From assembly GCA_965249865.1 (NCBI GenBank), contig CBDFMZ010000002.1, positions 1,483,304-1,547,303 of the forward strand: 64,000 bases of DNA. Direction: 5' to 3'. Below are positions 14,666-64,000 of this stretch, piece after piece. A program made the position numbers and the translations under genes. Position 1 is the stretch's first letter. The number at the start of each line of letters is the position of its first letter. The notes under the pieces are model-generated. The model saw nothing but the letters and a program-made list of their open reading frames with translations. It made no database searches and was not told the DNA's origin. This stretch comes from Acidobacteriota bacterium (GTDB lineage Bacteria; Acidobacteriota; UBA6911; RPQK01; CBDFMZ01).

Positions 14666-14701
14666 ATATCTCAGGTTCCCGGCTGATCAGAAAACCAGAA
14701 A

Positions 14702-27587: not shown

Positions 27588-28022
27588 CAGGGAATAATCA
27601 AAGTGAAGGAGTGTGTTAAAAAGATCTGATCAAAAAAAATGGCTTCAAATTTCATTCTATTTTTCCGGTTTTTGATCGGTTAAAATAGCATTTTTCACAA
27701 CGATTTACTACCGAGGCGCAAGAGTTACAGCAAAGGAAAATTGCGTGGAGTCACTCTCCAGGGGTCTGGAGTCGATACTTAGACATCGGCGATTTCGGGG
27801 AGAGACAACATCCAGTGGTACAATCCTGCCCTTCTGGTTGAAGCTGCTCAGGACAAGTTCGGACCTGCGACCAAGCTGATGAACTTTGACAACCGCTTTT
27901 GAAACGACTACATTCGTGAAAGAAAAAAATGTAATGTTGCCTCAAGAGTTTGTACTACAAGTGAAGTCGACCTAACGACCAAAAAGTTTTAACAAAACTG
28001 CAAAGGATGGGAGAGACATCAC

Positions 28023-46613: not shown

Positions 46614-49600
46614 GTGACCGGAAAGAGAATCTCCAGCAGTGTTTTCTGCCACATAGCCGTCGCGGCTGGTTTACTGATGATGCTAAGCTCGGGGCCACAT
46701 ACCGTCGCTGAGGCGGCGCCGGCAGGTGGCTCTCCACCTCTTCAGGGAGTCGACTTTTCCAGGGACATTTATCCGATTTTCGAAAAAGCTTGCCACTCCT
46801 GCCACGGTCCCCAGCTCCAGATGGCTAGGCTTCGCCTCGATTCGAAAAGGCCAGCCTTTGCCGGAGGACAGTCCGGAGAGACCATTCACCCAGGCAGACC
46901 ACTGGAGAGTATCCTCTACCAGCGCGTCGCCGGGCTGAACGACCTGGAGCGGATGCCGATGGGCGGGCAGCTGGAGACAGCTGAAATCGAGCTGATTCGT
47001 GCCTGGATTGAACAGGGTGCCGATTGGCCGGACGGGGTAAATGTCGCCGATGCGGAGATCCGCCAACACTGGGCATTCGTCTCGCCGCAGCGTCCCCTGT
47101 TACCGGAGGTTCGTAGAACGAATTGGCCCGCCAACCCCATTGACTCCTTTATCCTGGCACGTCTGGAAAAGGAGGGACTGTCTCCCTCTCCGCAAGTCGA
47201 CCGGGTGGCCCTGCTGCGGCGATTGAGTCTCGATCTGGTTGGCTTACCGCCGACGATTAAAGAAGTTGATGCCTTCGTGGCCGACCGGGACCCCGATGCT
47301 TACGAAAACCAGGTCCAACGGCTTCTGAACTCACCTCACTACGGTGAGCGCTGGGGTCGGCACTGGCTGGATGCGGCCCGCTATGCCGATTCGGACGGCT
47401 TTGAGAAAGACAAGTCTCGCCAAGTCTGGTTCTACCGAGATTGGGTGATCAATGCCCTCAATCGTGACCTGCCTTACGACGAGTTCATCATCGAACAACT
47501 GGCCGGAGACCTGCTGTCTCAGCCCACACAAAACCAAATCGTCGGCACAGGTTTTCTGCGGAATTCGATGATTAATGAGGAAGGCGGGATCAACCCGGAG
47601 CAGTTCCGAATGGAAGCTATGTTTGATCGCATGGACGCCATCGGCAAGGGTATCCTAGGCATTACGATCCAATGTGCTCAGTGCCACAACCACAAATACG
47701 ATCCACTCAAACAAGTAGAGTACTACCGCATGTTTGCTTTTCTAAACAACGCGTACGAGGCAAACATTGCTGTATACACCCCGCAAGAACAAATGAAACG
47801 AGCGCAAATCTTACGGCACATTCAAGAAATTAATGCCGAACTCAAGCACCGTCATCCAGACTGGGACGAGCAGATGAGACGGTGGGAAGAGACGGTCAAA
47901 AAAAACCAGCCGGACTGGGTGGTGGTTCGCCCCACAGTCGAAGACATCTCTACCGGAGGACAAAAGTATCTGCCCCTGGAAGACGGCTCCTTTCTGGCGC
48001 AGAGCTATGCTCCGAGCAAGCACCGGGTAAAGATGACAGTCCAGACAGCACTTCGCGACATTACCGCCTTCCGTTTGGAATTGTTGAACGATCCTAATCT
48101 GCCGATGGGCGGACCAGGCCGCTCCTACAAGGGCACGGGAGCGCTGACAGAGTTCGAGGTAGAGGCAGCACCGGCGGACGATCGGGAAAACACCACACCA
48201 ATAACGATCGCCAAAGCCACGGCTGACATTAACTTCCCAGTAACACCGTTAGAGGCCATTTTCGACGACAAAAGCGACCGGCGGCGCGTGACGGGTCCCA
48301 TCGAGTTTGCCATCGATGGCAAAGAGGAAACGGCCTGGGGAATTGACGCAGGTCCGGTGCGCCGCAATCTTCCCCGCAAAGCCGTCTTCGTGGCCGAAAC
48401 TCCTATTTCACATCCCCAGGGGACACTGCTGACCTTCTATCTGAGTCAAAAACACGGAGGAGAATATTTTCAGAGCAACAATCTCGGTCGGATTCGCCTT
48501 TCGATCACCACGACACCGGAGGCGAGAGCTGATCCACTACCGAAAACGGTTCGCGATACTCTGTCTCTGTCCATCCCTCGTGATCAGCGAAGCCCTGCCC
48601 AGATGCAGGCCATTTTCAGTTATTGGCGAACCACCGTACCGGAGTGGCAGCAGGCCCATTCGAAAATAGAAGAGTTATGGCAACAGCATCCCGAAGGCTC
48701 TGCTCAACTGGTGCTTCAGGAAGGCACCAAGCTACGCAACACCCATGTCCTAACCCGAGGCGATTTCCTCAAACTGGAAAAACAGGTGACAGGAGGCGTG
48801 CCTGCCTTTCTTCATCCATTTCTGGAAGACGCGCCAGTAAATCGTTTGGGCTTTGCCCGGTGGTTGGTGGATCGCCGATCGCCTACCACCGCGCGCTCCC
48901 TAGTAAACCGCGTCTGGCAAACCTACTTTGGCACTGGTCTGGTGGCAACCAGCGAAGACCTGGGCACACAAAGTGAACCACCGTCGCATCCTGAGCTACT
49001 GGATTGGCTAGCAGTTGAATTTATGGACCAGGAGTGGAGGTTGAAAAAGTTGCACCGGCTCATCGTGACTTCAGCCACCTATCAGCAGTCCTCCTCGGTT
49101 ACACCGGAACTACACGAACAGGACCCCTACAATCGTCTGCTGGCTCGGGGTCCACGCTTCCGGGTCGAAGGTGAAATCGTGCGCGACATCGCCTTGGCAG
49201 CAAGCGGCCTATTGAACCTGCAGATTGGTGGACCCAGCGTCTATCCGCCGGCTCCCGCGTTTCTGTTTATGCCTCCGGCCAGCTTCAGACCCAAGATTTG
49301 GCATGAAGCCACGGTAGAGAACCGCTATCGCCGTGCCATCTACACGTTTCGCTATCGTTCGATTCCCTATCCAGTACTTCAGACCTTCGACACGCCCAAC
49401 GCAGATTTTTCCTGCGTGCGCCGTGCCCGATCTAATACACCACTTCAGGCGCTGACGACGCTTAACGAACCGCTATTTCTGGAAGCCGCACAGGCGCTGG
49501 CCTTGAAAACACTACAGGAGGGCGGAGAGACAAATGTTACGCGTGTGACTTACGCTTTTCGCCGCTGCCTGGCGCGAATACCTAACGAGCCAGAGGTCGA

Positions 49601-49793
49601 CGAACTGCTAGCTCTGTTGAAGAAACAAACCGCCCGTTTCGCCCAGGGATGGGTCAGCCCCTGGGACATCGCCGGTTTTGAAGAAAACCAAAAACCACAA
49701 CTCCCCGCTGATACGACTCCTGTCCAGTTAGCCGCCTGGACTGCGGTCTCTCGAGTTTTATTGAATCTAGATGAAACCATCACGAAGGAATGA
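46614..49793 (+). CDS. PSCyt1 (CxxCH cytochrome-c-like) / DUF1549 / DUF1553 domain protein
   Basis: Signal peptide, then the PSCyt1 heme-binding motif [11 protein letters not shown]. The 1059-aa length and the trailing DUF1501 partner gene match the planctomycete-type PSCyt/DUF1549/DUF1553 architecture. Confidence 0.75.
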
Positions 49794-49803
49794 GGGCGGA
49801 GCT

Positions 49804-51249
49804 ATGAATTGTCAAGATCATCTCTATCGAAGTCGTGATCCTCGGTTGGTAAACCGGCGCTGGTTCCTGGAACAATGCCGTGTCGGACTTGGCGCCCTGG
49901 CACTCGGCCAACTCCTGAGCGATGCCGGTTACGCCAAGCCGGCAATTCCGTCGCAAAGCAATCCGTTCACACCAAGAACCCCGCACTACACCGCGAAGGC
50001 CAAGAACATCATCTTCCTCTTCATGGCTGGCGCTCCCAGCCATCTTGAACTGTTCGATTTCAAACCTCAACTAGCCAAGTTTGACGGAACCTTACCACCC
50101 GAAGATTTGATCAAGGACTACCGCACCGCCTTCATCAACCCGAGTTCAACGTTGCTCGGACCCAAGTTTAAGTTTTCTAAGCATGGGGAGTGTGGTACGG
50201 AGCTTTCCGAGTTGCTTCCCCATTTGGCTAATGTCGTCGACGATATTACGATCGTAAAATCGATGGTAACCGACGCCTTCAATCACGCACCTGGTCAGCT
50301 TTTGATGAATACGGGAACACAGCAGTTCGGCCGGCCCAGCATAGGGGCTTGGGTCACCTACGGTCTGGGCAGCCAATCCCAGGACTTGCCCGCCTTCGTG
50401 GTGTGCAGCTCCGGGAAGTCGGGCCCAAGCTGTGGAGAGTCCTGCTGGGGTAGTGGCTTCTTGCCAACTGTCTACCAGGGCGTTCCATTCCGCAGCAGCG
50501 GCGATCCTGTCCTCTATCTATCGAGCCCTCATGGCATGGACCAGGAGCTGCAGCGAGACTCCCTGGACTCAATTCGGCGACTGAACCAGATGCGCCTGAA
50601 CGTAACGGGTGATCCCGAAATTAACACGCGCATCAATTCCTTCGAAATGGCATTCCGGATGCAGACCAGCGTGCCGGAGTTAATGGATATCTCTCAGGAA
50701 CCGCAGCACATCCTGGACATGTACGGCGCCGAGACGGGCAAAGCTTCCTTCGCCAACAACTGCCTGCTGGCTAGGCGCCTGGTCGAGCGTGGCGTCCGCC
50801 TGGTCCAACTCTACCACGAGGCTTGGGATCAACATTCCTATCTAGTCAGAGATATCAAGAAGAACTGTGAAGACACCGATCGAGCTTCAGCTGCCCTAGT
50901 TCAAGATCTCAAACAGCGGGGTATGCTCGACGACGTGCTTGTCATCTGGGGTGGGGAGTTCGGGCGCACTCCAATGGTGCAAACGGGTAACGAGGACGGG
51001 CGCGACCATCACCCCAATGCCTTTTCCATGTGGTTGGCCGGGGGCGGCATCAAGCCGGGTACCACGCTGGGAGAAACGGATGAATTCGGGTTCAACGTGG
51101 TGAGCGATCCGGTTCATGTGCACGATCTGCATGCGACCATCCTGCATCTGCTAGGCTTCGATCACACCCGGCTGACCTACCGCTTCCAAGGACGCGACTT
51201 CCGCCTCACCGATGTCCACGGTGAGATCGTTTCCAAGCTCATTGCTTAG
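49804..51249 (+). CDS. DUF1501 (sulfatase-like fold) protein with a Tat-type signal
   Basis: An RRWFLEQ twin-arginine motif near the N-terminus. The ~480-aa length and its position directly after the DUF1553 gene match the conserved DUF1501 partner. Confidence 0.7.
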
Positions 51250-51283
51250 TACTCCAAGCAGATGGGGCTTGTGAGGCGAGGTC

Positions 51284-51302
51284 AAGGCGGGACGGAGCAC
51301 TC
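51284..51302. terminator. Hairpin between convergent genes (bidirectional terminator candidate)
   Basis: GGAGCAC-tcact-GTGCTCC is a 7-bp perfect stem followed by an AT-rich tract (ATAAATACA). Confidence 0.4.
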
Positions 51303-51339
51303 ACTGTGCTCCATAAATACACCTTACTCGGGGTCAGCA

Positions 51340-53838
51340 TCACTGGGAAGCTTGCAGCGTTTCCAGGGGTGATTCGTCGTAGACGCCACGGCTGTTCACT
51401 GCGCCGATCGCAAGGGTCAGTGCAGTCACGATGAAAAAGGTGATGACGACCGGAGTGGGAGATGGGACAAACACCGCGTCGAAAACGAAATAGGCCAGGC
51501 ACTCGGTAGCGGCCAACGCAATAATTCCCCCGGTCGCCGCGGCAAAAGCGCCCAGCAAAAGATACTCCACCATCAGAATCTTCAGGATTTGAGCGCGCGA
51601 GGCCCCCAGAGTTCTTAAAAGGACGCTCTCCTGCAGTCGCTGATATCGACCCGTGGCAAGCGTTGCGGTCAATACCATGAGTCCCGTGATAACACTGAAC
51701 GAAGCCATGAACCGGATGACAAAGGAAACCTTGTCGAGAACCGCGTCCATGGTGTCCAGGATCAGAGCCAGGTCAATCGAAGATACACTCGGAAACCTTT
51801 GCATGATCGCTCTCTGCAGTTTCGCGAAGAGCGGACGGGAAGGAACGCGGGCCGCCAGAACGTGAAATTGAGGTGCATTCTCGAGCACACCTTCCGGGAA
51901 GAGGATGAAGAAATTGGTCCGTAGTTGATCCCAATCCACACGGCGGATGCTGGCGACTATTGCCATCATCGGCACGCCCTGAACATCAAACTCGAGGGTG
52001 TCGCCGACAGCAACCTTCAGGTTCTCAGCGATTCCTTCCTCAAGCGAGACAGGGACCACCGGTGGGTCGCTATTGACCTTTCCCTGCCAGCTCCCTTCCA
52101 CGATCTCTTCGGTATCGCTAAGACGATTGCGATAGGTGCATCGATATTCCCTCAGCAGGGCCCATTCGGAAGTGGGTGATTCACGCCGCAACTGTTCTAC
52201 ACTTTTTCCCTCGATCGAGCTCAACCTCATGGTCACAATCGGGACATCGTGCAGTACCGGCACGTTGAGGGAACGCAGCAGCTCAGAGACTTGAGATTTC
52301 TGGTCCGATTGAATGTCAAACAAGAGCAGATTTGGCTGATTTCGGCTCGAGCGAGACACCTTGTCCAGCAAGACGTGGTGCGTCAGGTAGAGGGTTAAGA
52401 TCAAAAATGTACCCAGCCCGAGCGAGAGCATCAGCAGAGTGGTCTGATTTAGGGGCCGGTAAAGATTAGCCAGACCTTGCCGCCAGACGTAAGGCCATGA
52501 AGACGGGAACCATCTCCTGACCAAGACCATAATCAGCTTTGCAACGCCGCCGAGCAGACCAAAAATGAGCACCAACGAGACAAAGAATGCTGTACCACGG
52601 CCCCAGTGCCCCGTCTGCGTGATCGCAAAACTGAAAATGGCTCCTCCCAAGAGAAAATAAATCAACCACCGAAGCGGGTCTTTTCGTTGTGAAACACCCT
52701 GTTCATAGTCGGACCGAAGAGCAAGCAGCGGAGACATCTTCCGGATAGGCAAAAGAGGGAGCAGGGCAATGAGTAGGACGATTCCAAAACCGAGCAGCAG
52801 GCCCTCCGCAAGCGCCTTTCCAGAAACGATGAAGGGAACCTCCAAGGGTAGAAAATCGCCCAGGACGAGAGGAAGGAATGCCTGGACTCCCAGGCCTAAG
52901 AACGACCCCAAAATCGATCCCAGCAGCCCCAGAGCAGCCGCTTGGATCAAATAGACCAACACCGTTTTTCCTGAGCTTACCCCCAGACAACGGAGCATGG
53001 CCACGGTGGCGGTCTTCTGCTTGATGTACAAATGAATGGAACTGGCCACACCGATCCCACCCAGCAGCAGGGCAGCGAAAGCAACCAGTTTCAGAAAACT
53101 TCCGAAGTGACCGATCGTGCTTCCCAGTCTTGCTTTACGTTTCTCGACAGTGTCAGCTGCCAGTCTGGACCGGATGAGATCCGGTTCGATCTCTCGAACA
53201 AGTGTTTCGACATCAGCACCTTCCCCCATCTTAAAATAGACCGTATACCTGGCCCGGCTCCCAAACTGTATAAGTCCGGTCTGGTCCAGATACTCCAACG
53301 GGATAAAAACCGTCGGACCGATCAGGGAACGCACGGCCGCCTCACCGGGCGTGCTCTTGAGCCGACCAGCAATGTTAAAAATGAACGAACCCAACTGGAT
53401 TGGATCCCCCACTCCGGCACCAAACTGCAGCATCAGAGCGTCATCCGCCAGGGCGCTGGGTCCTGATTTAATGTGGTGAGCAGCGGCGGCTGGTTCAGTC
53501 TCCAGCGTGCCGTAATAGGGAAAGCCACCTTCTATCGCTCTCACCCTCACCAGCCTGCTCTTTCCACTTTCGGGGAAATGGGCCATCGACAGGAAACTGA
53601 CCTGCCGGGAACGCTCTCCCTGGATGGCGTTGATCAGCTTTTGGGCCTGGTGGGTGAAAGGCTGATTCCCGAAAATGGCCAGATCAGCCCCCAGCAATGA
53701 CCTCGCCTGCCGGTCAATAGCCCTCTCAAGGCCCTTACTGAAGGAACTGATCGCGACCAGCGCGGAAACACCAACGACAATCGAGGACATAACCCAGAGC
53801 ATCCGTTTCCGGCTGGAACGGCTGTCACGCCAGGCCAT
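51340..53838 (-). CDS. FtsX-family ABC transporter permease (two FtsX domains; YbbP/MacB-like)
   Basis: A membrane protein of more than 800 aa with two 4-TM FtsX-like modules and large periplasmic loops. It lies downstream of the ABC ATPase in the same orientation. Confidence 0.7.
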   Translation of the reverse strand: MAWRDSRSSRKRMLWVMSSIVVGVSALVAISSFSKGLERAIDRQARSLLGADLAIFGNQPFTHQAQKLINAIQGERSRQVSFLSMAHFPESGKSRLVRVRAIEGGFPYYGTLETEPAAAAHHIKSGPSALADDALMLQFGAGVGDPIQLGSFIFNIAGRLKSTPGEAAVRSLIGPTVFIPLEYLDQTGLIQFGSRARYTVYFKMGEGADVETLVREIEPDLIRSRLAADTVEKRKARLGSTIGHFGSFLKLVAFAALLLGGIGVASSIHLYIKQKTATVAMLRCLGVSSGKTVLVYLIQAAALGLLGSILGSFLGLGVQAFLPLVLGDFLPLEVPFIVSGKALAEGLLLGFGIVLLIALLPLLPIRKMSPLLALRSDYEQGVSQRKDPLRWLIYFLLGGAIFSFAITQTGHWGRGTAFFVSLVLIFGLLGGVAKLIMVLVRRWFPSSWPYVWRQGLANLYRPLNQTTLLMLSLGLGTFLILTLYLTHHVLLDKVSRSSRNQPNLLLFDIQSDQKSQVSELLRSLNVPVLHDVPIVTMRLSSIEGKSVEQLRRESPTSEWALLREYRCTYRNRLSDTEEIVEGSWQGKVNSDPPVVPVSLEEGIAENLKVAVGDTLEFDVQGVPMMAIVASIRRVDWDQLRTNFFILFPEGVLENAPQFHVLAARVPSRPLFAKLQRAIMQRFPSVSSIDLALILDTMDAVLDKVSFVIRFMASFSVITGLMVLTATLATGRYQRLQESVLLRTLGASRAQILKILMVEYLLLGAFAAATGGIIALAATECLAYFVFDAVFVPSPTPVVITFFIVTALTLAIGAVNSRGVYDESPLETLQASQ

Positions 53839-53874
53839 CTTGCATACCCACGTGTAAGACACTGTTTCCCCCGG

Positions 53875-54588
53875 TTACTTGGGCGACGGATTTGCACCGT
53901 CCGATACCACCCTCCCTGCTCGGAGACGAATGATTCGACTAGCCTGGCTGGCTAGTTCCAGGTTATGGGTAACCACAACCAGAGTTGTTCCGGCCTCCCT
54001 GTTCAGGTCGAATAGGAGCTGTCGGACCAAGCCGCCTGTTTCCGTGTCGAGGTTACCCGTCGGCTCGTCAGCAAAGAGGATTTGTGGTTGGTTGACAAAG
54101 GCGCGAGCCAGAGCAACTCTTTGTTGCTCACCTCCAGAAAGCTGCGCGGGGTAGTGGTGGAGACGCTCTCCCAAACCAACCCGCTCCAGCAGTCCGCAGG
54201 CTCGGTGTCGACTATCATTGTCGCCACGCAGTTCGACCGGCACCATCACGTTTTCCAGGGCGGTCAACGTAGGAATCAATTGGAAAGTTTGAAAAACGAA
54301 ACCCACATGTTGGTTTCGCACCAGTGCCAATTCTTCTTCCTCGAGCTGGTTAAGTGGCATTCCGCTGAAAAGCACGGTTCCCGAGGTCGGGCGGTCCAGA
54401 CCAGCACACAAGCCCAGAAGCGTGGTCTTTCCGCTCCCGGACGGACCTACAACGGCTACGGAGGCCCCCTGCTCGATGGAAAAAGAAACTTCGGTGAGCA
54501 CCGTCAGAGTGCGATTTCCACTCCGGTAGGTCTTGGTCAGACGCTCAGCCCTGAGAAGTCCGTTCAATAATTGCGCTCCTTCCTCCAC
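53875..54588 (-). CDS. ABC transporter ATP-binding protein (YbbA/LolD/MacB-NBD-like)
   Basis: Walker [11 protein letters not shown]-loop, signature [14 protein letters not shown] and Walker [14 protein letters not shown] probable GTG start lies near 54588. Confidence 0.8.
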
Positions 54589-54893
54589 ATCCCCGCAACA
54601 CGATCGCAATGGTGAGAAGAGTACGTTGTATAATCTAGCCCAGGTTATGCATAAGCTGCCTGCTGCATCGGTGAAATCGTCCGTCCTGACTGCGTTGCGC
54701 TCGATCGGCCTCATCGACGTACTGCGCGAGTACGCCTGCTGGGCTTCGGTTGAGACGCTTTGTCAGGCCGGCGCTTTCACCGTTTCGCTACGACACCTTA
54801 TGTATAATCCGGGCTAGTGTCCTGTCTCATAAATAACATGCTATTTGTTGCAGGCAAAACGTTTTCTGATTCGAGGCGTGACGACGAGTCGAA

Positions 54894-55556
54894 GTGATGA
54901 GAAAGCCTTCGCTTCGGGCCATCTTTTTCGGCTTCATCGTCCTGGCTTCCCCGGCAGCCGATGTGTATTGGCTTTCGGCGGGGGAAAAAAGCTCGACCAG
55001 GTCGAATGTCGTTCTCTTTCTGGGAACCAGCCTCACCGCGGGGTATGGGTTGACACCCTCTCAAGCTTTTCCCGCTTTGATCCAGCAAAAGATCCGGTCT
55101 CTCGAGTGGGACGTGGAGGTCGTCAACGCCGGACTGAGCGGAGAAACGTCGGCTGGAGGGCTTCGCCGTATCGAATGGTTATTAAAGCGGAAGATTGATG
55201 TTATGGTTCTCGAACTCGGTGCTAACGACGGCCTGCGCGGCATTCCAGTCGAGATCACAAAAGGAAACCTGCAAGCCATCATTGATCGAGCAAAAAGTAC
55301 CTGTCCGGGTGTGAAGGTTGTGATTGTGGGCATGCAAATTCCTCCCAGTCTGGGGCTGCTTTACAGCAAACAGTTTCGGTCGCTTTTCTCGGAGTTGGCT
55401 GGGGAAAATGACGCTTTGTTGATCCCCTTCTTGCTGGAGGGAGTGGCGGGGAGACCCGAGTTGAATCTGCCCGACGGCATTCATCCTACAGCCCAGGGTC
55501 ACCAGATCATGGCCGAAAACATCTGGAAGATCTTGAGGCCCCTCCTCATTCCATAA
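54894..55556 (+). CDS. SGNH/GDSL-family esterase (TesA / lysophospholipase L1-like), secreted
   Basis: Signal peptide, then the block-I GTSLTAGYG (GDS(L)-like Ser), the block-III GANDG and a C-terminal DGIHP. It is divergent from the ABC ATPase-permease pair. Confidence 0.7.
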   Translation: MMRKPSLRAIFFGFIVLASPAADVYWLSAGEKSSTRSNVVLFLGTSLTAGYGLTPSQAFPALIQQKIRSLEWDVEVVNAGLSGETSAGGLRRIEWLLKRKIDVMVLELGANDGLRGIPVEITKGNLQAIIDRAKSTCPGVKVVIVGMQIPPSLGLLYSKQFRSLFSELAGENDALLIPFLLEGVAGRPELNLPDGIHPTAQGHQIMAENIWKILRPLLIP

Positions 55557-55567
55557 ATAGGGTACGG

Positions 55568-56572
55568 TTAGCCAACCCGCTCGGGTCGTTTCACACAACG
55601 CTCCAGGGCGTTGACGACCCGCGCGGCCGGGAAGCTGACGACCAGATAAAGGAGCGCGGCTCCCGTGTAGACTTCAAAGAAACGGAAGGTGGTGGAAGCC
55701 TGCCAGCGGGTGCTCCACAGGATTTCTTCGATCCCAATAATCGAGACAAAAGTCAAAGCCTTGAACATACCGATCAGATAGTTCCCCATGGCAGGGATCA
55801 TGGTGCGGACGGCTTGGGACAGAACAATACGCCGCATGGCCAGGCTTCTCGACATACCCAGGACGGTGGCCGCTTCGAATTGTCCCCGATCGACCGATCC
55901 GATTCCGGCCCGATACACTTCGGAAAGATAGGAGGAGACAGGTAGTATGATGCCAAAAACCGGCAAGACCCAGAACGCAACGTAGAGCTGAACCAGAAAA
56001 GGCGTGTTCCGGATGAACTCAAGATAGGCCGTAAAGGGTATGCGGAGCCAGCGCCGGCGCGACATCCGAGCCAGGGCTACAAACAACCCCAGAATGGCGG
56101 CGAGCAGAAAATCCAGCAGCGTCACCTCAACGGTAATGACGCGCTCTTGAGGAATACCGAAGTCCTCTCGGGCGATGGTCAATTCCGCTGCACCGACGGT
56201 ACCGCCCATCTTGATGTCGTCGCGCTCTACAAAGTCCTTATAGCCATGGATGTTCTTGGGGTTGCCGGCTCGAACCATGGCTCCAAACGTGCTCAAGTAA
56301 ATGGGATCGGAAAAATTGACGACTTCACAGCGCTCGGGCCGAATCGCCATACCGATCGGGATGATGTCGAAGCGCCCGGCCAGCAAACCTGGGGTCAATC
56401 CTCCCCAGCCCATATACACCCCGATGATCTTCTCAATTCCCAGACGCCGGGCTGCTTCGCGGGTCACTTCAATGTCAAAACCGGTCAGGTTGCCCTGATC
56501 ATCGAGGTGCCCGTAGGGGATTTCCTGCCCGAACCCGACACGCAGGCCGGATTCTCGCGCTTGTTCCAGCAA
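55568..56572 (-). pseudogene. Polar-amino-acid ABC transporter remnant: substrate-binding domain lacking its signal peptide, fused to the permease
   Basis: The N-terminal part LRVGFGQEIPYGHLDDQGNLTGFDIEVT...DIIPIGMAIRPERCEVVNFSDPIY matches the SBP_bac_3 family. The C-terminal part is a HisM/GlnP-type permease (FLVQLYVAFWVLP...). There is no signal peptide, and it is joined out of frame to the ATPase fragment upstream. Confidence 0.5.
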
Positions 56573-56973
56573 AGCCGGTGGGCCGTAGCATCGGCCTCCT
56601 TCTGATGAATTTTCTTAACCCAAACGGGTGCTTCGGTGACGTTTTCCAGCACCGTCATATGAGGAAAGAGGTTGAATTGCTGGAAAACCATGCCCATCTT
56701 ACCGTGTAACCGTCGCATATTCTTTTCAGTGCCGGACGTCAACTTTTTCTCTCGACCGGCTTGAAAGAGTTCTCCCTCGATCTCAATAGTACCGTCGTCG
56801 ATGGTTTCCAAGCCGATCACACAACGCAGCAGCGTAGTCTTTCCGGAGCCACTGGCGCCGATGATCACCAACTTTTCGGAGCGAGTGACCGTCAGATCGA
56901 CGCAATCCAGAACTTTCAGGTCACCGTACCGTTTGTCCACGTTACTCAAGCGAACCATCACGTCTGTGGCCAT
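56485..56973 (-). pseudogene. Truncated amino-acid ABC ATPase (Walker A and Q-loop only; signature and Walker B missing)
   Basis: MVRLSNVDKRYGDLKVL...[14 protein letters not shown]...MVFQQFNLFPHMTVLENV, after which the frame decays. The expected LSGGQ and Walker B blocks are not encoded downstream. Confidence 0.55.
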
Positions 56974-56977
56974 GGCG

Positions 56978-57364
56978 TCACCGCCGACTGTCACTCTGCC
57001 GGCACCACGCCTGAGTACAGGCGGCCGAGGCTGGAGATGCTGTGTTGGACTCCCACAAGCCGCAGAAGCTGCCAAACCGTGGCCTGGTTTGCAGTGACGA
57101 CGGGCTTTCCTGCGATACCCTCGGCATTGGCGATAATGGTCGCATCATACCGGTACAGGAGACGAAGATGCCGTCGGCCTCCGGCAGGTCCAAACCGGCG
57201 ACCAGCTCCAGAATTCTCGCCGATGGCAATTCCTCGATGGACTCGCGCATGTTCAGCCCCTCGATCACCTCCCGGCCAATAAGACCACCTGCCAGGCTGT
57301 GGTGGACGGACGGGTTCATATCAGGGAGTTTCCTGTTTAACCGGAACAGTCCTGACCCGCTCAT
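56978..57364 (-). pseudogene. Fragment of an Asp/Glu/hydantoin-racemase or maleate-isomerase-family gene
   Basis: ...ILELVAGLDLPEADGIFVSCTGMMR matches the C-terminal block of the Asp/Glu-racemase / arylmalonate-decarboxylase superfamily. The N-terminal half is absent and the tail decays. Confidence 0.35.
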
Positions 57365-58344
57365 CCGAGGCCAATTTCGCGCAGATACTGGCGGGTGCGT
57401 TTCGCGATCGGCAGAGGCTTATCAAAGGGTGCCGGATACATGTCTTGTTCAACGATGCCCCAGCCGCTGTAGCCGACTTCTCGCAGCACATCGCTAAGAG
57501 CCACGAAATCCACGGTACCTTTGGACGGTTCGCAAAACATATCCATGCCGACTGCCACGGCGAATGGAACATTCTCCGCCTCAACTTTCGCCCGCACTTC
57601 GGAATCGACGCTTTTGAAATGCATGTAGGGAATACGATCATGACGACGCCGCATCAGATCAACAGGGTCACCACGGCGGTACGCGTAATGGCCCGTGTCC
57701 AGGCAAAGACTTACCGTAGAATCCGTTTGGTCAAGAAACGCCTCGACCTGGTCCGGGTACTCCACGTGCGAGTCGGCATGAGGATGAAAAACCAGCTGAA
57801 GGCCGAAACGATCTCGAACGAGCTGGGCCAGTGTGTAGGTCGTTTCCAGCAGCTGCTTCCACCCGTCGCTGTCGAGACTGACGGGTCGCAGCCTTTCTCC
57901 GGTGAACATATCTGAATAGGTTTCGTCAATCAACACCAGGAATTTTGCGTCTATACCGGCCAGCAATTCACCGATGGGTGTAACCTGCTGCTCGAGTTCC
58001 GCATACTGGAAAGGGTCCTCGAGGTGCCTCGTGATGAACGTCCCGGTGGCCTCGAGATTCCGAGTTTTTAACTCTTGGCGAAGGGTGGTCAGATCGGTCG
58101 GGAGGTAACCATAAGGACCCAACTCCGTCCCTTGGTAACCCACCTCGACTACCTCATCCAAATACCGGCGCCATGGAATCTGCTTGGGGTCATCGGCGAA
58201 CCACACTCCCCAGAAGTCAGGCCCAGTGCCAACCTTGACCTTCGGTCTTTCCGGGACCGTCCCCACTTCGGAGGAGCACCGGGTGGACAGAGCCGCCGCC
58301 CCCAGGCTCAAAAAGGAGTTTTTCAAAAACTTCCTTCTATGCAT
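57361..58344 (-). CDS. Sugar phosphate isomerase/epimerase (xylose-isomerase-like TIM barrel), Tat-secreted
   Basis: A twin-arginine signal (MHRRKFLKNSFLSLGAAAL) and an AP-endonuclease-2/xylose-isomerase-like TIM-barrel length and His/Asp/Glu pattern. Confidence 0.6.
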   Translation of the reverse strand: MHRRKFLKNSFLSLGAAALSTRCSSEVGTVPERPKVKVGTGPDFWGVWFADDPKQIPWRRYLDEVVEVGYQGTELGPYGYLPTDLTTLRQELKTRNLEATGTFITRHLEDPFQYAELEQQVTPIGELLAGIDAKFLVLIDETYSDMFTGERLRPVSLDSDGWKQLLETTYTLAQLVRDRFGLQLVFHPHADSHVEYPDQVEAFLDQTDSTVSLCLDTGHYAYRRGDPVDLMRRRHDRIPYMHFKSVDSEVRAKVEAENVPFAVAVGMDMFCEPSKGTVDFVALSDVLREVGYSGWGIVEQDMYPAPFDKPLPIAKRTRQYLREIGLG

Positions 58345-58455
58345 CGGACTTCCCTCCTACTAGGGCAGTGTATCAGACGGGCACACGGATTTCTTCGACA
58401 ATCCTGAACTCCAACGGAAGGCTGCCGTACTCCTGGCAGTCGACAATGCCGAACA

Positions 58456-59538
58456 TCAGGGCCGGGTCGAATCTTCGCGAACCACAGGTAACTCGATTTT
58501 CAGCTTTCGCGCGACGATACGCAGATTACGGACGGTTCCTTCCGGTAGCGGGATACCGGAGCGGAGACGCTCCCGGTAGACCCTTTCTTCCGGTTCACCA
58601 GGGACAAAAATTTCATCGACTCCTTCGGCTCTGGGAAGGGCTTTCAGGGCGTCGATGAGTTGATCTACCTGGCCCTTGTAGCTGGCCATGTCGGTGAACG
58701 CGGCGATGTCAACCGCCGCCAGAAACCCGTTCTGTTGAGCAAAGTTGATCCGTCCTTCACGGAGCAGCGCAGGCACGATGAGTGGATTGCCCACCATGAG
58801 GCTGGAGAGGCACTCCAACATGAGGGCCAGCCCTGAACCCTTGGGTCCTCCGGCCGGCAGCAGGGTCGTACACAGTTTCGGATCGGTGGTCGGGTTACCA
58901 TCCTGGTCCAGACCCCAGCCCTCCGGGAGAGGAATACCCTTGTCGATGGCGAGCAGGACTTTTCCTCCTGCCGCTACGCTTGTCGCCATATCGAGAATGA
59001 GGGGTTGATGGCGCTCAGCCGGCACGGCAATCGCTATCGGGCTGTTGTGCACACCTGCTGCCCGGGCCCCGTAAGGAGCCATGTTGGGTGGGCTACACAC
59101 CGAGGCGATCCCAGCCATGTCTTCCTTTGCGGCCATGAGAGAATAGTAGCCCATGGCACCCTGATGTGACGTATTGTGGATGAGACACCACCCGATACCG
59201 AGTTCCTTGGCCTTTTTCATTACCCGGTCCATGGCCATCGTGGTCACCACGGGACCGAGGGCGCAGTCTGCATCGATCAGCAAAGTGGCGGGTGTCTCCC
59301 GGAGAATGCGGATGTTGGGCCTGGGGTTCATAAGACCCTCTTCCAGGTTTGCCACGTAGTTGGGAATCAACAGCACACCGTGCGAGTCCACCCCGCGCAG
59401 ATTGGCCCAGATGAGCACTTCGGCCTCCGTCTCCGCATCTTCGGGTGGCACACCCACCCGCATGAATACCTCCCTGGTGAATTGTTTCAGGTCTTCCCAC
59501 CTAACACGAACTCCTTGCTGTGACATGGTTTCCTCCAT
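58456..59538 (-). CDS. Ldh2-family (malate/L-lactate/ureidoglycolate/sulfolactate) dehydrogenase
   Basis: LIWANLRGVDSHGV...IHNTSHQGAMGYY...ATSVAAGGKV matches the type-2 Mdh/Ldh family. The start was set at the internal Met. Confidence 0.7.
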   Translation of the reverse strand: MEETMSQQGVRVRWEDLKQFTREVFMRVGVPPEDAETEAEVLIWANLRGVDSHGVLLIPNYVANLEEGLMNPRPNIRILRETPATLLIDADCALGPVVTTMAMDRVMKKAKELGIGWCLIHNTSHQGAMGYYSLMAAKEDMAGIASVCSPPNMAPYGARAAGVHNSPIAIAVPAERHQPLILDMATSVAAGGKVLLAIDKGIPLPEGWGLDQDGNPTTDPKLCTTLLPAGGPKGSGLALMLECLSSLMVGNPLIVPALLREGRINFAQQNGFLAAVDIAAFTDMASYKGQVDQLIDALKALPRAEGVDEIFVPGEPEERVYRERLRSGIPLPEGTVRNLRIVARKLKIELPVVREDSTRP

Positions 59539-60218
59539 TGACTGACACGCGCCTGCAAGCGGAACCAGCCGCCGGGCTGGTTTCCCTTGTAACTGACCAA
59601 CTTCCAGCACGACAAAACTTCGAGGTGACCCGAGTGAAGAACTTCGAACTTCTAGCTAGGGGCTTGATTTGTTGACTCCGGCCAGCCAGTCTGCGAAGTC
59701 ACCCTGTCGCCACGTGTACTGAGGCTGGTAGCCCAACAGCCGGGTGGCCTTTTGGTTCGACCAGAGGGAGGCGTAACCCTGCAGGGGCCTCTTTAGAGGT
59801 ACATGTGAGTAGTATCGAGAGAGGAGTTCAGGGGTCTCCACCCTGGAAGACGTGTCATAGCCACCGAACACGAAGACCTCATACTTAAGGTCCTCATTTT
59901 CCACCGCCAGCCGGACGGCTTGCGCCGTATCCCTTGCATCCGTAAAACCCCACAATATGTTGCGCGGTGCCGGTGGACCCGGTACGGGCCACTCCTCTTC
60001 AGGAGCATCTTCTACGGTCTTGAGGTATCTCCTGGTCCAAATGTCTTCGACCGTAAGTCCCTTAGCCCAGCTTGACTGAGTGGCTACTTCGGCCTCGTTC
60101 CTCTTGATGTACCAACTGTTGTTGATACGCAAGCAGAGGGTTCGTATCCCGTAAGCGTCCGAGTATCTCTTGCAGGTGATTTCAGCCAACAGTTTGCTCA
60201 ATCCGTATTCGTCGTGTG

Positions 60219-60231
60219 GCCGGCAAGGATG
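60219..60231. repeat. 13-bp direct repeat GCCGGCAAGGATG (left copy) flanking the IS remnant
   Basis: The sequence is identical to 60754-60766. It encodes the duplicated HPCR peptide of the split epimerase. Confidence 0.75.
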
Positions 60232-60753
60232 AATTCTCCGCACGATTGTTCAGCCAGCGGCCGGCTTGTTGCAGACCGAATCCGCCCAGTTCGCGCAACG
60301 CCGCTCGGTAAGACCTCAGCCGATCAGTGATGATCGCATCCGGCCTGCCGTAGCGCTTCATTAGTTTCCTGAGGAATTTCAAAGCGGCTTCGCGGTCTCT
60401 CTTCTTCGAGACAAAGGCCTCAAGCACCTCGCCTTCCTGGTCGACGGCTCGCCAAAGGTAATGACCTTCGCCGTTGATCTTCACGAACATCTCATCGAGG
60501 TGCCACCGCAACCCGAAAACGCGCGCATTCGATCCATCCGCTTCTTGCGGATCTCGGCGGCTAAATCGGGCCGAACCGGTTCCACCAGAACCGGACTCGT
60601 GGCTCACCTCGATCCCACGCTCGTGAAGAAGGTCCTCGACATCACTGCCAGGCGGATGATCTCGGGCGAGGTCTTGAAATAGCGAAAGGGGTTCTTCATC
60701 CGAAGACACTACAAGGCGCATCTCGCCGACTCAAGCCAGTTTCCTCTGACAAT
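60232..60753 (-). mobile_element. Degraded IS6-family (IS26-like) insertion sequence remnant
   Basis: The minus strand encodes WHLDEMFVKINGEGHYLWRAVDQEGEVLEAFVSKKRDREAALKFLRKLMKRYGRPDAIITDRLRSYRAAL...RWLNNRAENS, matching the IS6 DDE transposase core (W-H-x-D-E...YLWRAVD...ITD). The N-terminal HTH part is spread over three frames (EVSHES / VRFWWNRFGP / DLAAEIRKKR). The C-terminal ~60 aa and a clear right IR are missing. Confidence 0.65.
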
Positions 60754-60766
60754 GCCGGCAAGGATG
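60754..60766. repeat. 13-bp direct repeat GCCGGCAAGGATG (right copy)
   Basis: Identical to 60219-60231. Confidence 0.75.
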
Positions 60767-61222
60767 TTCTTCGTCGATAGGGAGGTAGTCCGGAACGATC
60801 TCATGCTTTTGAAAGCAGAACCCCGTCGCCGCACAGGAAGAAGCAAAGACCACCTTCCCTACACCTGCCCGAAGGGCTCCCTCCAGAACGTGTACGGTTC
60901 CCACTACGTTGACTTCGATCATTCGCTCGGGCCGGGGGCCCGCCCGGGCCCCGGTACAGCGGCCAGGTGGATCACGGCGTTGGTACCGTGACACGCTTGG
61001 GCGAGCTTCTCCGAATCCATTATGTCGCCCCGAATGGACTCGGCTCCTTTCACCTTCGGTCCACTGCGGCTATAGTCCGCTACAGTATGACCGGCTTGGA
61101 GCAACTCACGGAGCACATAGCTCCCGAGAAGACCACTGCCGCCCGTGACGAGGATTTTCATGAGATCTCCCTTTCAAGGTGAACCTTCTTCTCTCCTGAC
61201 CGCCCGCAAGTCAAAGCCTGGT

Positions 61223-62357
61223 TCATCCCTTCAACACCTCTCGAAGGGTTGCCTCGATGCCCTCCAGAGCGTCGTCGATATCTTTTTCCGTATGGACCCA
61301 GGAAAAACCATGTTGCCAGCCGCTCATTAAATAGACACCGTGTTGGAGGGCCGTGCGATAGAAGCGAAGCTGAAGTTCCCAGTCGATTCTTGCCGTATCC
61401 CCCCACTCCCGCAAGAGGTCTCCGGTGCTAAAATACATGCCGAAGCGGTTGCCGACAGCCTGGATGTGCCCTGCGCCGTAACGCTGGAATAATTCACCCA
61501 GCCCGTCATAGAGGCGCTTTTCCAATCGTTTCTGGTGCTCCCACACGGCCTGTGTTGCGGCAATTTCTAAAAACACCTCGGCCGCGTGCATCACCAAAAC
61601 CTGACCATAGTAGGTTCCCTGGTTGATGACCTCACTCACCGGAGCGAGGCAATAGACCTTCGAGATAGCCGGTGAAATTGATCGGCTCCATGATGACAGC
61701 GGCAGTCCTGTCTCCCTCTCGCTTCAGTAGATCCTCCAAAAAGTTCCAGGTCCTTCCACGGGAGTATGGACACATAGTTACCTACCTCCGGGATGGTGCC
61801 GGCGCTCTCCCCCCCGAACAGTGGACGAAGCTCGCGGTCCTGTCTCGTCGAGTCGAGTGAAGCAGTTGAACTGCAGTACATCGTTGTGTCCGTGGTAGTG
61901 CCCTTCAAACTTGACGACCTTGAGTTTCCCCGTAAACGCCCGAGCTACCCTTACAGCCAGTGCCGTGGCCTCCGTACCCGTGAACATGAGTCGCACGAGC
62001 TCGGCACAGGGGAGCATCTCCACAAGCCGTTGCGCCACGCGGCTGGGGAACACGGTCTCCTTGCCCGCACATAATTCCCCTCTCGATCCCCTTGTGAAGG
62101 GCCGCCTTGATAGCCGGATGACTGTGTCCAACGAGCGCGGCACCATGCCCACAATTGAGGTCGACATATCTTCTGCCGTCCAAGTCAAACAGGTAGGCCC
62201 CACTGCCACGAGAGACAAAGAACGGACGACCGTCCAGCTCCTCGCGCCGGCGGCCCGGTGTGGTCATGCCTGCCACAAGGTAGCGAGATGCAAACTCAAA
62301 GGCCTCATCGCTGCAAAGCTCTCTCTCGGCGTACGTATCAGACTCTGCTCTGGACAT
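61223..62357 (-). pseudogene. Class-III (GSA-aminotransferase/HemL-like) aminotransferase broken by at least four frameshifts
   Basis: The ordered pieces are FVSRGSGAYLFDLDGRRYVDLNCGHGAALVGHSHPAIKAAL, ELVRLMFTGTEATALAVRVARAFTGKLKVVKFEGHYHGHNDVL, IPEVGNYVSILP (other frame), and the C-terminus RFGMYFS...GVYLMSGWQHGFSWVHTEKDIDDALEGIEATL. Different frames are used, and there are gaps between the pieces. Confidence 0.55.
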
Positions 62358-62595
62358 CCCCTAAATCTCTTCTGTGATCCAATCTTTCATCGCTCTGCAA
62401 AGATGAGTGCATTGATGAACCCGAGCACACAAGGAATTCAGTTCATCATAGAACAGCCGTTCTCGTGCAGGTAAGCATACTCGACAATTTGTTGAAATTC
62501 ATCCCCGCAGCATCTAGAATGGTGTTTCTTCACGGAGGTGAAGTGCGGTGGTGTGCACACCTCTTGGCTGCACATTTTTCCAGGAACGATCCTAA

Positions 62596-63066
62596 ATGAC
62601 ACACGAAGTACAGATGGCCACAAGACTGACCATCATTGTAGTTATGACGTTTACCATCACTCTGGGGCTCCAGAGACATGTCGCCACTCAGGAAGCATCT
62701 AACCAGGAAAAGAAAACGGAGCGGATCGCTATTTCGGAGTTGAAGAAAAAGCTCGACAGCGGCGAAGAGTTCCTGTTGATCGATGTCCGTGAAGACTGGG
62801 AACTAGAAAAAGACGGCGCCATCCCCGGCGTCATCCACATCCCAGTGGCCGAGCTCGATCAACGAATGAAGGACATCCCCAAAGACATTGAGCTCGTCTT
62901 TTACTGAAGGGGTGGAGGGCGTGCGGCGCGCGCTGCCGAGAAATTCATCCAAGCGGGTTACAAAGCGGGGGGGTTTTGTAGCCTTAGCGATTGGAAGAAA
63001 GCAGGACAGGAAATCGTTGAAAAGGTGGACCGGCCAACAGAAGGATCAATCCAGCCGAAACACTAA
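62596..63066 (+). CDS. Periplasmic single-domain rhodanese (sulfurtransferase) with in-frame TGA at the active-site Cys position: candidate selenoprotein, or alternatively a nonsense pseudogene
   Basis: Signal peptide/TM, then the rhodanese fold (LIDVREDWE...GVIHIPVAEL...IELVFY-TGA-RGGGRAARAAEKFIQAGYKAGGF...W). The TGA at 62905-62907 sits exactly where CxxGxR rhodaneses have the catalytic Cys. The frame continues cleanly to TAA at 63064-63066. Confidence 0.55.
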
Positions 63067-63371
63067 GTGTCTCGTTTTATCGATACGATGACATTTGTGG
63101 CACTCGCCACAATTATGAAACCAAGTACTAAACGTATCAGTGTCACTTCGAATTCAAAAGTATCCCTGCTAGTTCGGACGGAGTCCGGGTCGAGGCACCC
63201 GGTTTTGAAACCTATCAGTCTCTTCAATCCATCAGCTACTCCATCATAGATTCATCATCTAATTAGAAAGTAGCAGATTGGCACTGTAAATCGTGGGCCA
63301 ACCTTCCCGAAGCTACATGACTATGAAAATTGACCACCGAAGGACAATATCTATCGATGAGTGGGAAGCCA

Positions 63372-63980
63372 TTAAAACTGAGTTCGACTCAAGATGGATT
63401 CGGCGTATCGGAGCTCTCCCGTCAACCCATCGTAGTATTGGAAGACCACCTGAGGATGGGGAAAAGCCACCCATCGCTCCCGGCCGAGCTCTACAGGATT
63501 ATTGAAGACATTGTTGACCTGAACGACGCAATAGAAGGGGTGAAACCTGAGAGAAGCGGAAGTCATATCGTTGAGCAAGTAGCTCGACCAGCGGATCTCG
63601 CACTGGCGGCCCTGAGAGTCGAAAACACCATTGGCCGGTCGATTCCCCTCGTCACTGGCCATATGGTTGGCTGAGTTGTGCGGTCCTGAGGCGAACTCCC
63701 AGACCCGGTCGGTGATCTTAATCACAAAACTGTTGTGCAAATCTCCCGTGAGAACGAAAACAGGTTTTCCTAAAGAGTCCCAGAACTGAATAAGTTGTTC
63801 GCGCTCTTCAAGAAACACAGTCCAGGCATCGTCCTTGTTGACTGGGGCGACTTTCCAACTGCCCCCCGCCGTGTGGGGAACCATAAGGTTGACCGAGGAG
63901 ACGACGAAGAGGAACTCAGAGTCACTCTCAACCATCGCTTTCATCAACCAGTCCTTCTGTCGTGTCCCCAGCATCGACAA
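63372..63980 (-). CDS. PhoD-like/metallophosphoesterase family protein (C-terminal part)
   Basis: VFVLTGDLHNSFV is the GDxHN metallophosphatase motif. The ORF starts 20 bp from the window edge, so the N-terminus may be incomplete or misassigned. Confidence 0.35.
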   Translation of the reverse strand: MSMLGTRQKDWLMKAMVESDSEFLFVVSSVNLMVPHTAGGSWKVAPVNKDDAWTVFLEEREQLIQFWDSLGKPVFVLTGDLHNSFVIKITDRVWEFASGPHNSANHMASDEGNRPANGVFDSQGRQCEIRWSSYLLNDMTSASLRFHPFYCVVQVNNVFNNPVELGRERWVAFPHPQVVFQYYDGLTGELRYAESILSRTQF

Positions 63981-64000
63981 GCCCGGCTGGTCGGGATGCT

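Follow-up and report, generated by a model that had tools for sequence, protein, structure and literature searches.

A probable, recently broken-down uptake and catabolism cluster in a 64-kb stretch of contig CBDFMZ010000002.1

In the DNA considered here, a stretch of 64,000 nt from contig CBDFMZ010000002.1 (assembly GCA_965249865.1, Acidobacteriota bacterium; the whole stretch is called the window), the 6.8-kb region 55568-62357 holds pieces of an ATP-binding cassette (ABC) transporter, a racemase, an epimerase and an aminotransferase beside a fragment of an insertion sequence (IS). The region raises the question of whether a gene cluster has truly decayed here and, if so, what the cluster was, how long ago it was inactivated and whether the IS was responsible. 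An initial annotation had listed five decayed genes within 7 kb and had read them as real pseudogenisation of an old amino-acid or hydroxy-acid catabolic locus, with the lesions concentrated next to an IS remnant. All five lesions were recovered in place on the minus strand, and the count grew to eight gene remnants and one deleted gene. We conclude that the region is very probably a real, recently broken-down uptake and catabolism cluster with an ancestor of about 11 kb, caught in ordinary bacterial gene loss.

Results

Eight gene remnants in 6.8 kb

An open reading frame (ORF) listing, Pfam scans and comparison with relatives identified remnants of eight genes in 55568-62357. All genes concerned lie on the minus strand. 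The remnants are those of a HemL-like aminotransferase, an epimerase of the short-chain dehydrogenase/reductase (SDR) type, an IS6 transposase, an M24/DoeA-like hydrolase, a EutA-like racemase, and EhuA-, EhuB- and EhuD-like ABC transporter parts. A ninth gene, ehuC-like, is wholly deleted. Two genes among the remnants, encoding an Ldh2 dehydrogenase and a TIM-barrel enzyme with a twin-arginine (Tat) signal, are intact. The reading frame was broken or shortened in all eight remnants relative to intact orthologues (in L024, L025, L020 and P0001). We counted about 15 or more lesions in the 6.8 kb and detected one frameshift in the other 57 kb of the window, a lesion density about 100-fold above that of the rest. 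ORFs of at least 90 aa make up 89% of the whole window, and sampled ORFs outside the island matched their profiles at full length. The GC content of the region is the same as that of its flanks, and Rfam and tRNA scans of region and window gave no match. Absent from the initial annotation were an in-frame EhuB'-EhuD' fusion, the lost first permease gene and the stub of the M24 hydrolase.

Lesions were mapped by blastn, tblastn and alignment (five-way for the aminotransferase), principally against three relatives. A sister strain (L001) is represented by a 655-kb contig, an independent assembly from another sample that is 99.9% identical to window positions 47361-64000. A truly syntenic relative (L024) is a circular 4.10-Mb genome with 88-93% nucleotide identity to the window. 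Its gene order is PhoD, rhodanese, aminotransferase (445 aa), epimerase (318 aa), Ldh2, TIM barrel, transporter genes, GDSL lipase, MacB-type ABC genes and DUF1501; the window has like flanks, with PhoD and rhodanese on one side and the lipase, MacB-type and DUF1501 genes on the other. The third locus (L025) has an uninterrupted M24 hydrolase, ATPase (256 aa), binding protein (296 aa), two permeases (213 and 239 aa) and an M20 deacylase. Further use was made of L019, L020-L022, L028 and L029. Comparison with a syntenic region and tBLASTN with intact family members had both been proposed with the initial annotation; the former was possible with L024, in which aminotransferase and epimerase are intact, and the latter mapped the lesions gene by gene with L024, L025 and L020 proteins.

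Intact forms of the broken genes were readily found. The reconstructed aminotransferase, used as query, retrieved intact homologues of 444-445 aa (72-78% identity) on megabase contigs; in the L020-L022 lineage this gene is paired with an intact epimerase of 322 aa. The ORF joining binding protein and permease retrieved separate, full-length binding proteins and permeases (78-86% identity).

Transporter, racemase and hydrolase remnants

The initial annotation described an ABC ATPase that stops after its Q-loop and is joined out of frame to a binding domain devoid of its signal peptide. Both descriptions proved exact. The ATPase keeps codons 1-135 of 256 (Pfam and tblastn), with Walker A and the Q-loop (FQQFNLF), and has lost LSGGQ, Walker B and the H-loop. 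It ends at codon 135 in a 505-bp deletion with the microhomology CCGGCTTT(G). Beyond the junction, ...ATAHRL/LEQARESGLRVGFGQ, the binding protein continues out of frame from codon 27 by L025 numbering (43 by that of L024), and the deletion removes the signal/lipoprotein leader. The binding-protein fragment lacks, in addition to this signal peptide, the C-terminal lobe of about 105 residues. The latter was lost in a 1412-bp deletion (junction 56138/56137, microhomology GTCATT), which took away the last third of the binding protein, all of the ehuC-like gene and 35 codons of the permease, and which by chance leaves an in-frame EhuB'-EhuD' ORF of 334 aa. A 36-bp in-frame deletion at 55939/55938, at the repeat TCTC, takes 12 residues from a transmembrane helix of the permease.

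The racemase remnant had been annotated as the C-terminal ~70 aa of an Asp/Glu-racemase-family gene. It does match the C-terminal part of Amdase and EutA; the length was corrected to about 85 codons, and the remnant is itself frameshifted, near 57147-57150 after ...SCTG, in the sister strain as well. Its match to Pfam Amdase (positions 149-227/228, E 1.8e-8, 34.7 bits against a cutoff of 25.9) places it in the superfamily. Its best family was EutA (TIGR02990, positions 165-237/239, E 1.4e-14), ahead of arylmalonate decarboxylase (AMDase), at 54.1 bits for this truncated gene against a cutoff of 318. It also matched the C-termini of PDB 4ix1, AMDase and maleate isomerase. The 22-codon hydrolase stub is fused to it in frame, and the fusion ORF is 113 aa long.

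Aminotransferase and epimerase remnants

In keeping with the four or more pieces first described, the aminotransferase consists of five segments in three frames. Insertions of A at 62062 and of 6 bp at 61667-61672 occur in the window only; insertions of G at 61815 (in a G7 run) and of T at 61742 (in a T5 run) are common to the sister strain, whose copy has a private 1-bp deletion of its own. A 212-bp deletion (junction 61649/61648), flanked by the repeat CTCGC(A/T)CCGG, takes L024 residues 234-304, including the pyridoxal phosphate (PLP) lysine K284 and the aspartate of the FDE motif, as aligned to GSAM (2hoy). Pfam and PDB GSAM (E 7e-83) assign the class-III aminotransferase fold. The intact L024 protein scored 345.7 bits with TIGR00713 (HemL), below the cutoff of 527.3; the enzyme is thus HemL-like, not HemL.

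The epimerase is IS-disrupted, as had been annotated: a 522-bp IS6 fragment splits it at codon ~135. It also has a 1-bp frameshift (-1, in the window only) near 60936-60942. With the L024 and L020 epimerases as tblastn queries, residues 1-75, 76-135 and 132-318 fell in different frames. In the sister strain the epimerase is one intact ORF of 323 aa.

Judged from their sequences, none of the remnants should be able to work, because the PLP lysine is missing from the aminotransferase, the ATPase is without its signature motif, Walker B and H-loop, the binding protein has lost its leader and one of its lobes, and one permease is gone and the other clipped.

Two intact genes

Full-length Pfam matches bore out the earlier view that the neighbouring Ldh2 gene and the gene for a Tat-exported enzyme of the sugar-phosphate-isomerase type are intact. 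The Ldh2 protein is 92.8% identical to that of L024, with a ratio of nonsynonymous to synonymous substitution rates (dN/dS) of 0.28, shows zero differences from the sister strain and reaches no NCBIfam equivalog cutoff. The TIM-barrel protein is identical in the sister strain and 95.7% identical in L024 (dN/dS 0.09). Its score with IolE (TIGR04379) was 160.2 bits against a curated cutoff of 290; membership of the xylose-isomerase-like family alone is established, and the protein is not IolE by that cutoff. Both genes are under purifying selection and presumably still functional. The coordinates of all features are collected in Table 1.

Table 1. Features of region 55568-62357 of the window.
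Feature	Position	Strand	Basis
HemL-like class-III aminotransferase pseudogene	61223..62357	-	Pfam Aminotran_3 on three pieces; intact orthologues P0001, P0002, L024 (444-445 aa)
Aminotran_3 pieces, several frames	61223-62357	-	Pfam
SDR-type NAD epimerase/dehydratase pseudogene	59656..61161	-	Pfam Epimerase on three pieces; tblastn
Three Epimerase pieces	60919-61161, 60731-60994, 59656-60243	-	Pfam
Truncated, internally deleted IS6-family element, 522 bp	60232..60753	-	DDE_Tnp_IS240, E 1.7e-32; alignment to L029
DDE_Tnp_IS240 ORF between epimerase pieces	60182-60721	-	Pfam
13-bp direct repeat CATCCTTGCCGGC, upstream copy (second copy 60219-60231)	60754..60766	-	Repeat search, spacing 535
Ldh2-family dehydrogenase (malate/L-lactate/sulfolactate-type), intact	58456..59526	-	PF02615 Ldh_2, positions 2-332/333, E 5.7e-109
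Complete Ldh_2 protein ORF	58456-59610	-	Pfam
Xylose-isomerase-like TIM-barrel enzyme, intact, twin-arginine leader MHRRKFLK...	57361..58344	-	Pfam AP_endonuc_2, positions 1-248/249
Complete AP_endonuc_2 TIM barrel, RRKFLK twin-arginine leader	57361-58344	-	Pfam
M24/creatinase (DoeA/EutD-like) hydrolase stub, 22 N-terminal codons	57254..57319	-	blastn, 89% over 65 bp; tblastn, residues 1-22 of 403-aa L025 protein
ORF without Pfam match	56978-57364	-	ORF listing; Pfam scan
EutA/arylmalonate-decarboxylase-family (Asp/Glu racemase superfamily) C-terminal ~85 codons	56991..57253	-	Pfam Amdase; NCBIfam EutA
EhuA-like ABC ATPase, codons 1-135 of 256	56569..56973	-	Pfam ABC_tran, positions 2-91/137; tblastn
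ABC_tran ORF, profile positions 2-91/137 only	56485-57075	-	Pfam
EhuB-like substrate-binding fragment, codons ~27-176 of 296	56138..56584	-	Pfam SBP_bac_3; NCBIfam EhuB, positions 26-173/275; tblastn with L024/L025
EhuD-like permease fragment, codons ~36-239	55568..56137	-	NCBIfam EhuD, positions 18-210/212
ORF with SBP_bac_3 then BPD_transp_1, 334 aa	55568-56572	-	Pfam

The IS6 fragment

The IS copy matched PF13610 at positions 2-111/139 (E 1.7e-32) and is 89-96% identical to IS6 transposases of 225-234 aa (P0244, P0252 and P0268). A full relative of 812 bp (L029) has inverted repeats of 17 bp (GGCATTGTCAGAGGAAA and its near-complement) and flanks that resemble an 8-bp duplication. Where aligned, the window copy is about 98-99% identical to this relative. 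It starts exactly at the intact left inverted repeat GGCATTGTCAGAGGAAA, has internal deletions of 34, 4, 1 and 1 bp and a broken transposase frame, and ends after GAGAATTCA, at about codon 159 of 233; the 3' ~250 bp with the right inverted repeat are missing. As inverted repeats do not stand at both ends, the copy is a remnant and not an element.

The fragment lies between two copies of a 13-bp repeat. The sister strain aligns to both copies and shows the intact target sequence. The repeat plausibly consists of CA, an 8-bp target-site duplication TCCTTGCC, and GGC, three bases that begin the IS and also come next in the target. The truncation at the 3' end falls in a patch of imperfect homology (CACCTGCC versus TCCTTGCC). 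The structure of this end is as expected from a canonical insertion and then one more slippage deletion. Precise excision in the sister strain through the 13-bp repeat found no support, since one of the two flanks belongs to a diverged haplotype.

A second IS6 copy, probably from the source genome (P0268), has the same 34-bp deletion, which frameshifts the N-terminus of the transposase. There are therefore two or more copies of a non-autonomous IS6 variant, which has been either duplicated or mobilised in trans.

Elements of the IS6 family are known to delete adjacent DNA, and the lesion cluster could in principle have been caused by this element, or by IS activity more widely, through such deletions or rearrangements. 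Three to four IS copies lie within this locus in the syntenic relative, and in another relative (L019) the aminotransferase is followed by IS6-like and IS3 elements, with no epimerase. We nevertheless consider IS-driven decay most unlikely. The IS is absent from the locus in L001, L024 and L020. In neither the aminotransferase nor the ehu/eut part does a deletion junction contain an IS end, a second copy of the IS terminus was not found in the window, and the epimerase alone is affected by the IS. The sister strain carries all the shared lesions with no IS and with its epimerase intact; the IS is therefore only a bystander in one haplotype, neither cause nor organiser of the decay.

Timing of inactivation

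Pairwise comparison of the window remnants with their L024 orthologues yielded dN/dS values of 0.11 (binding protein), 0.20 (aminotransferase and ATPase alike) and 0.21 (epimerase); the permease alone was raised, at 0.59. For comparison, functional flanking genes gave 0.15-0.26, alongside the values for Ldh2 and the TIM barrel given above. Parsimony counts of nonsynonymous and synonymous changes (N:S) by branch revealed no significant nonsynonymous excess. Apart from the permease, the likeness of the remnants to functional genes argues for a recent inactivation, with constraint apparently acting over the greater part of the period since L024 diverged (dS about 0.15-0.3). Old pseudogenes were rejected by the dN/dS values and the branch counts; in this respect the locus is not the 'old' one of the initial annotation.

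The same comparison bears on whether the cluster came in by horizontal transfer (from Chloroflexota, for instance) without ever becoming part of host physiology, and is now being purged. The nearest homologues of Ldh2, EhuB and EhuD outside the clade are from Chloroflexota (57-69% identity), and the aminotransferase-epimerase pair and the ehu genes occur in different contexts in other relatives. Such a failed acquisition is highly improbable, since the composite locus with the same flanks was already present in the common ancestor with L024 and was under purifying selection for most of the time, and its GC content is that of the flanks. This account is compatible with recent loss of a working cluster and concerns only the deeper history.

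Decay versus assembly error

Scarcely any probability attaches to the idea that the lesions are consensus indels or mis-joins in a low-coverage or repeat-confused region of a long-read metagenome and that the genes are truly intact. Indels of 1 bp do occur now and then between other near-identical assemblies of the same study. Of the 1-bp lesions, several are found in the window only (+A at 62062, -1 near 60936, +C at 31782 and two single-base losses within the IS), the frameshifts at 61815 and 61742 lie in short G and T runs, and the sister contig has a coverage of only 11x. Against this, the sister strain, assembled independently from another sample, shares the 212-, 505-, 1412- and 36-bp deletions base for base, as well as the hydrolase/racemase fusion, the two aminotransferase frameshifts in these runs and the frameshift of the racemase remnant. 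Direct repeats of 4-10 bp bound these four deletions, as in genuine ones, and the IS junction has a true IS terminus and a plausible target duplication. Elsewhere in the window, no frameshift was detected at any of 26 homopolymer runs of at least 7 nt, and lesions are far denser in the island. The repeat-bounded junctions, the recurrence of the lesions in the independent assembly, the intact orthologues in relatives and the undamaged homopolymers together support real decay rather than uniform sequencing error, as the initial annotation had proposed. Single-base indels private to the window are indistinguishable from consensus errors, and the pseudogene verdict is independent of them.

The +C at 31782 (ACCTTT[C]GGCC) frameshifts an mnhD-like gene (Mrp antiporter/complex-I-like; 31515-33006, plus strand), which in the sister contig L028 is a single ORF of 492 aa. 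Either the gene is a pseudogene in the window alone or the extra base is a consensus error.

That the two chimeric ORFs (EhuB'-EhuD' and the hydrolase'-racemase' fusion) are functional novelties such as a new membrane protein, or a natural binding-protein/permease fusion as in Gram-positives, is hardly conceivable: both are open and 100% identical in two strains and natural fusions of about 490 aa exist (e.g. in Nocardioides and Lactiplantibacillus), but the strain identity spans the whole 6.4 kb and is uninformative on selection, the closest relatives (85-86% identity) have separate full-length genes, EhuB'-EhuD' is without a signal peptide, one third of the binding domain, permease codons 1-35 and a portion of a transmembrane helix, the ATPase and partner permease are no longer left, and the permease part has a raised dN/dS (0.59) and changed conserved motifs. 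A natural fusion as the explanation of the 334-aa ORF was rejected on the separate genes of the relatives and the deletion junction.

Strain differences

Between the window and the sister strain, no difference was found in 53828-60231, which holds all transporter, hydrolase and racemase remnants, nor in 62284-64000. About 17 differences (~1%) and the IS fall in 60887-62283. Both aminotransferase-epimerase alleles have derived changes relative to L024. With the IS and the broken epimerase in one strain only, the decay is still polymorphic. The pattern suggests that the 60887-62283 cluster is an allelic recombination tract ending at the IS site, not a local neutral excess. Relaxed selection was rejected as a sufficient cause of this cluster because the ehu/eut pseudogenes show zero differences between the strains.

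We tentatively extend this picture to a gene loss in progress at the population level, which we regard as possible rather than probable. It would comprise two aminotransferase-epimerase alleles, one with an intact epimerase and one with the IS6 remnant and a frameshift, on backgrounds 99.9-100% identical, allelic exchange by homologous recombination and an independent loss through different lesions in a sister species (L024). If true, an ectoine-type solute-scavenging pathway is being abandoned in parallel within a PVC-type lineage, and its loss would be trackable in time-series metagenomes.

Outside the region, the sister strain has a 12-bp tandem duplication (GCGTCTGAAGGC) in a HAD-hydrolase gene (26916-27587), at window position 27402, and the window has 5 extra bp (27623-27627) in an A-rich intergenic stretch. 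The two strains diverge by 0.4% around 27 kb and by 0-0.12% at 47-60 kb, and their similarity is thus mosaic.

Substrate class of the ancestral locus

Equivalog tests for Ehu and DoeA used the intact proteins of L025; the fragments in the window, being truncated, fall short of the cutoffs. L025 EhuA scored exactly at its cutoff (345.4 bits against 345.4, TIGR03005), EhuC scored 205.0 against 196.95 and EhuD 213.1 against 205.2. In Sinorhizobium meliloti, ehuABCD-eutABCDE is a substrate-induced operon for ectoine and hydroxyectoine uptake and catabolism, in which EutA is a racemase and EutD a hydrolase, with an aminotransferase and an oxidoreductase alongside (PMC5924519). EhuABCD-type transporters have also been described in Planctomycetota (PMC13342039). 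Because the EhuA, EhuC and EhuD cutoffs are reached in L025, the best family of the racemase is EutA, that of the hydrolase is DoeA and the logic of the cluster is as in S. meliloti, we call the locus Ehu/Eut-like; the ancestor was probably an uptake and catabolism cluster of the ectoine/hydroxyectoine type.

Related loci in other genomes

The syntenic relative is losing the same locus independently (6100-16200). Its ehuA has a CAG-to-TAG nonsense mutation, Q133*, two codons from the deletion junction of the window, and an IS1595-type element and two IS4-type (DDE_Tnp_1) elements lie around ehuB, ehuC and ehuD. Hydrolase and racemase remnants were searched for in this genome, and none was found. 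A second assembly of the same population (L023, 8187-8242) disagrees with it in an indel-rich patch of ~55 bp in the IS1595 region and in three 1-bp indels elsewhere, which illustrates the assembly noise in the data set.

In L019 (11400-13900) and L018, an intact aminotransferase (78%) is followed by an unrelated ORF of 87 aa, a different IS6-like element and an IS3 element, with group II intron reverse transcriptases near. The epimerase, Ldh2 and TIM-barrel genes are absent from L019, and a search for remnants of them found none.

A scan of species-representative genomes with Ldh2 gave distant matches only (Chloroflexota 64-71%, others 39% or below). Among these Ldh2 matches there was no synteny with the window, apart from a weak association with amino-acid ABC genes in one Ruminococcaceae metagenome-assembled genome. 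Outside the immediate clade, the nearest homologues are from Chloroflexota (Anaerolineae, Dehalococcoidia and Ardenticatenaceae; loci L002-L005, P0127/P0130), with identities of 64-71% for Ldh2, 62% for EhuD and 57% for EhuB. This affinity hints at older horizontal exchange of the three genes. The gene content of the host, with PSCyt1/PSCyt2/PSD1, DUF1501 and sulfatases, is of the PVC type (the Planctomycetota/Verrucomicrobiota kind).

Discussion

The ancestral locus would have measured about 11 kb and read, along the minus strand, aminotransferase, epimerase, Ldh2, Tat TIM barrel, M24 hydrolase, EutA-like racemase, ehuA, ehuB, ehuC and ehuD. Selection on most of this cluster was probably lost recently in this lineage. 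We infer that erasure then proceeded by replication slippage or illegitimate recombination between short direct repeats, which would account for the deletions of 212, 505, 1412 and 36 bp; a further deletion of at least 1.6 kb would have joined the hydrolase and racemase genes, and single-base frameshifts would have added to the erasure. Among the lesions, deletion at short direct repeats predominates. In one haplotype only, an IS6-family element would have inserted into the epimerase and then been truncated itself.

Several points weigh against this reconstruction. The hydrolase-racemase-ehuA order was rebuilt from two different relatives and is not found in any single intact template. The dN/dS of most remnants is still low (0.11-0.21) and N:S is not raised, such that relaxed selection is read from the lesions and is unseen in the substitutions. 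The indel at 31782 shows that private 1-bp indels, real or erroneous, occur outside the island too. With respect to the substrate, L025 EhuB scored 162.6 bits, below its cutoff of 190.9. The L025 hydrolase, for which DoeA (ectoine hydrolase) is the best family, scored far below both cutoffs (200.9 against 575 for NF038259; 165 against 613 for TIGR02993) and, as an M24/creatinase-fold protein, is called DoeA-like only. Finally, no EutB, EutC or EutE homologue was seen.

The type of event is well known and no new mechanism is implied; the significance lies mainly in annotation hygiene and evolutionary bookkeeping. Public assemblies annotate the 334-aa ORF of binding protein and permease and the aminotransferase fragments as genes, though they are debris. 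The case is a clean example, at the level of junctions, of deletional erosion at short direct repeats, and it shows that an IS remnant beside pseudogenes need not be their cause. It also suggests that relatives of the organism carry or carried an Ehu/Eut-like solute locus, which is of modest interest given the work on ectoine transport in Planctomycetota (PMC13342039).

Among known systems, the locus most invites comparison with ehuABCD-eutABCDE of S. meliloti and the related clusters of Ruegeria pomeroyi and Halomonas elongata. It shares with them a four-component ABC importer of the polar-amino-acid type, a EutA-type racemase, an M24 hydrolase of the DoeA/EutD type, and an aminotransferase and oxidoreductases alongside (PMC5924519). 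It differs in that the cluster is dead, the order is hydrolase-racemase-ehuABCD, the aminotransferase is HemL-like and not DoeD-like, EutB, EutC and EutE were not seen, and EhuB and the hydrolase fall under their family cutoffs.

The 334-aa ORF resembles GlnP-like natural fusions in having SBP_bac_3 followed by BPD_transp_1 in one frame. The fusions of Nocardioides and Lactiplantibacillus have a signal peptide and complete domains over their ~490 aa, whereas the present ORF arose from a 1412-bp deletion between two genes. The IS fragment is like IS6 elements of the IS26/IS257/IS6100 type in its DDE_Tnp_IS240 domain, an inverted repeat starting GGC, a parent of ~0.8 kb and flanks compatible with an 8-bp duplication. 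By contrast with the family, it is non-autonomous, is 522 bp long, lacks the right inverted repeat and has four internal deletions and a broken frame.

Mira, Ochman and Moran are said to have described, in 2001, the erosion of pseudogenes by deletional bias in host-restricted and free-living genomes. The present region conforms to that pattern in its small and medium deletions at short direct repeats, its frameshifts, its IS hit and the intact state of selected neighbours. It departs from it in that nothing in the window points to genome-wide reduction: the decay is a local one, very recent and still polymorphic between co-existing strains.

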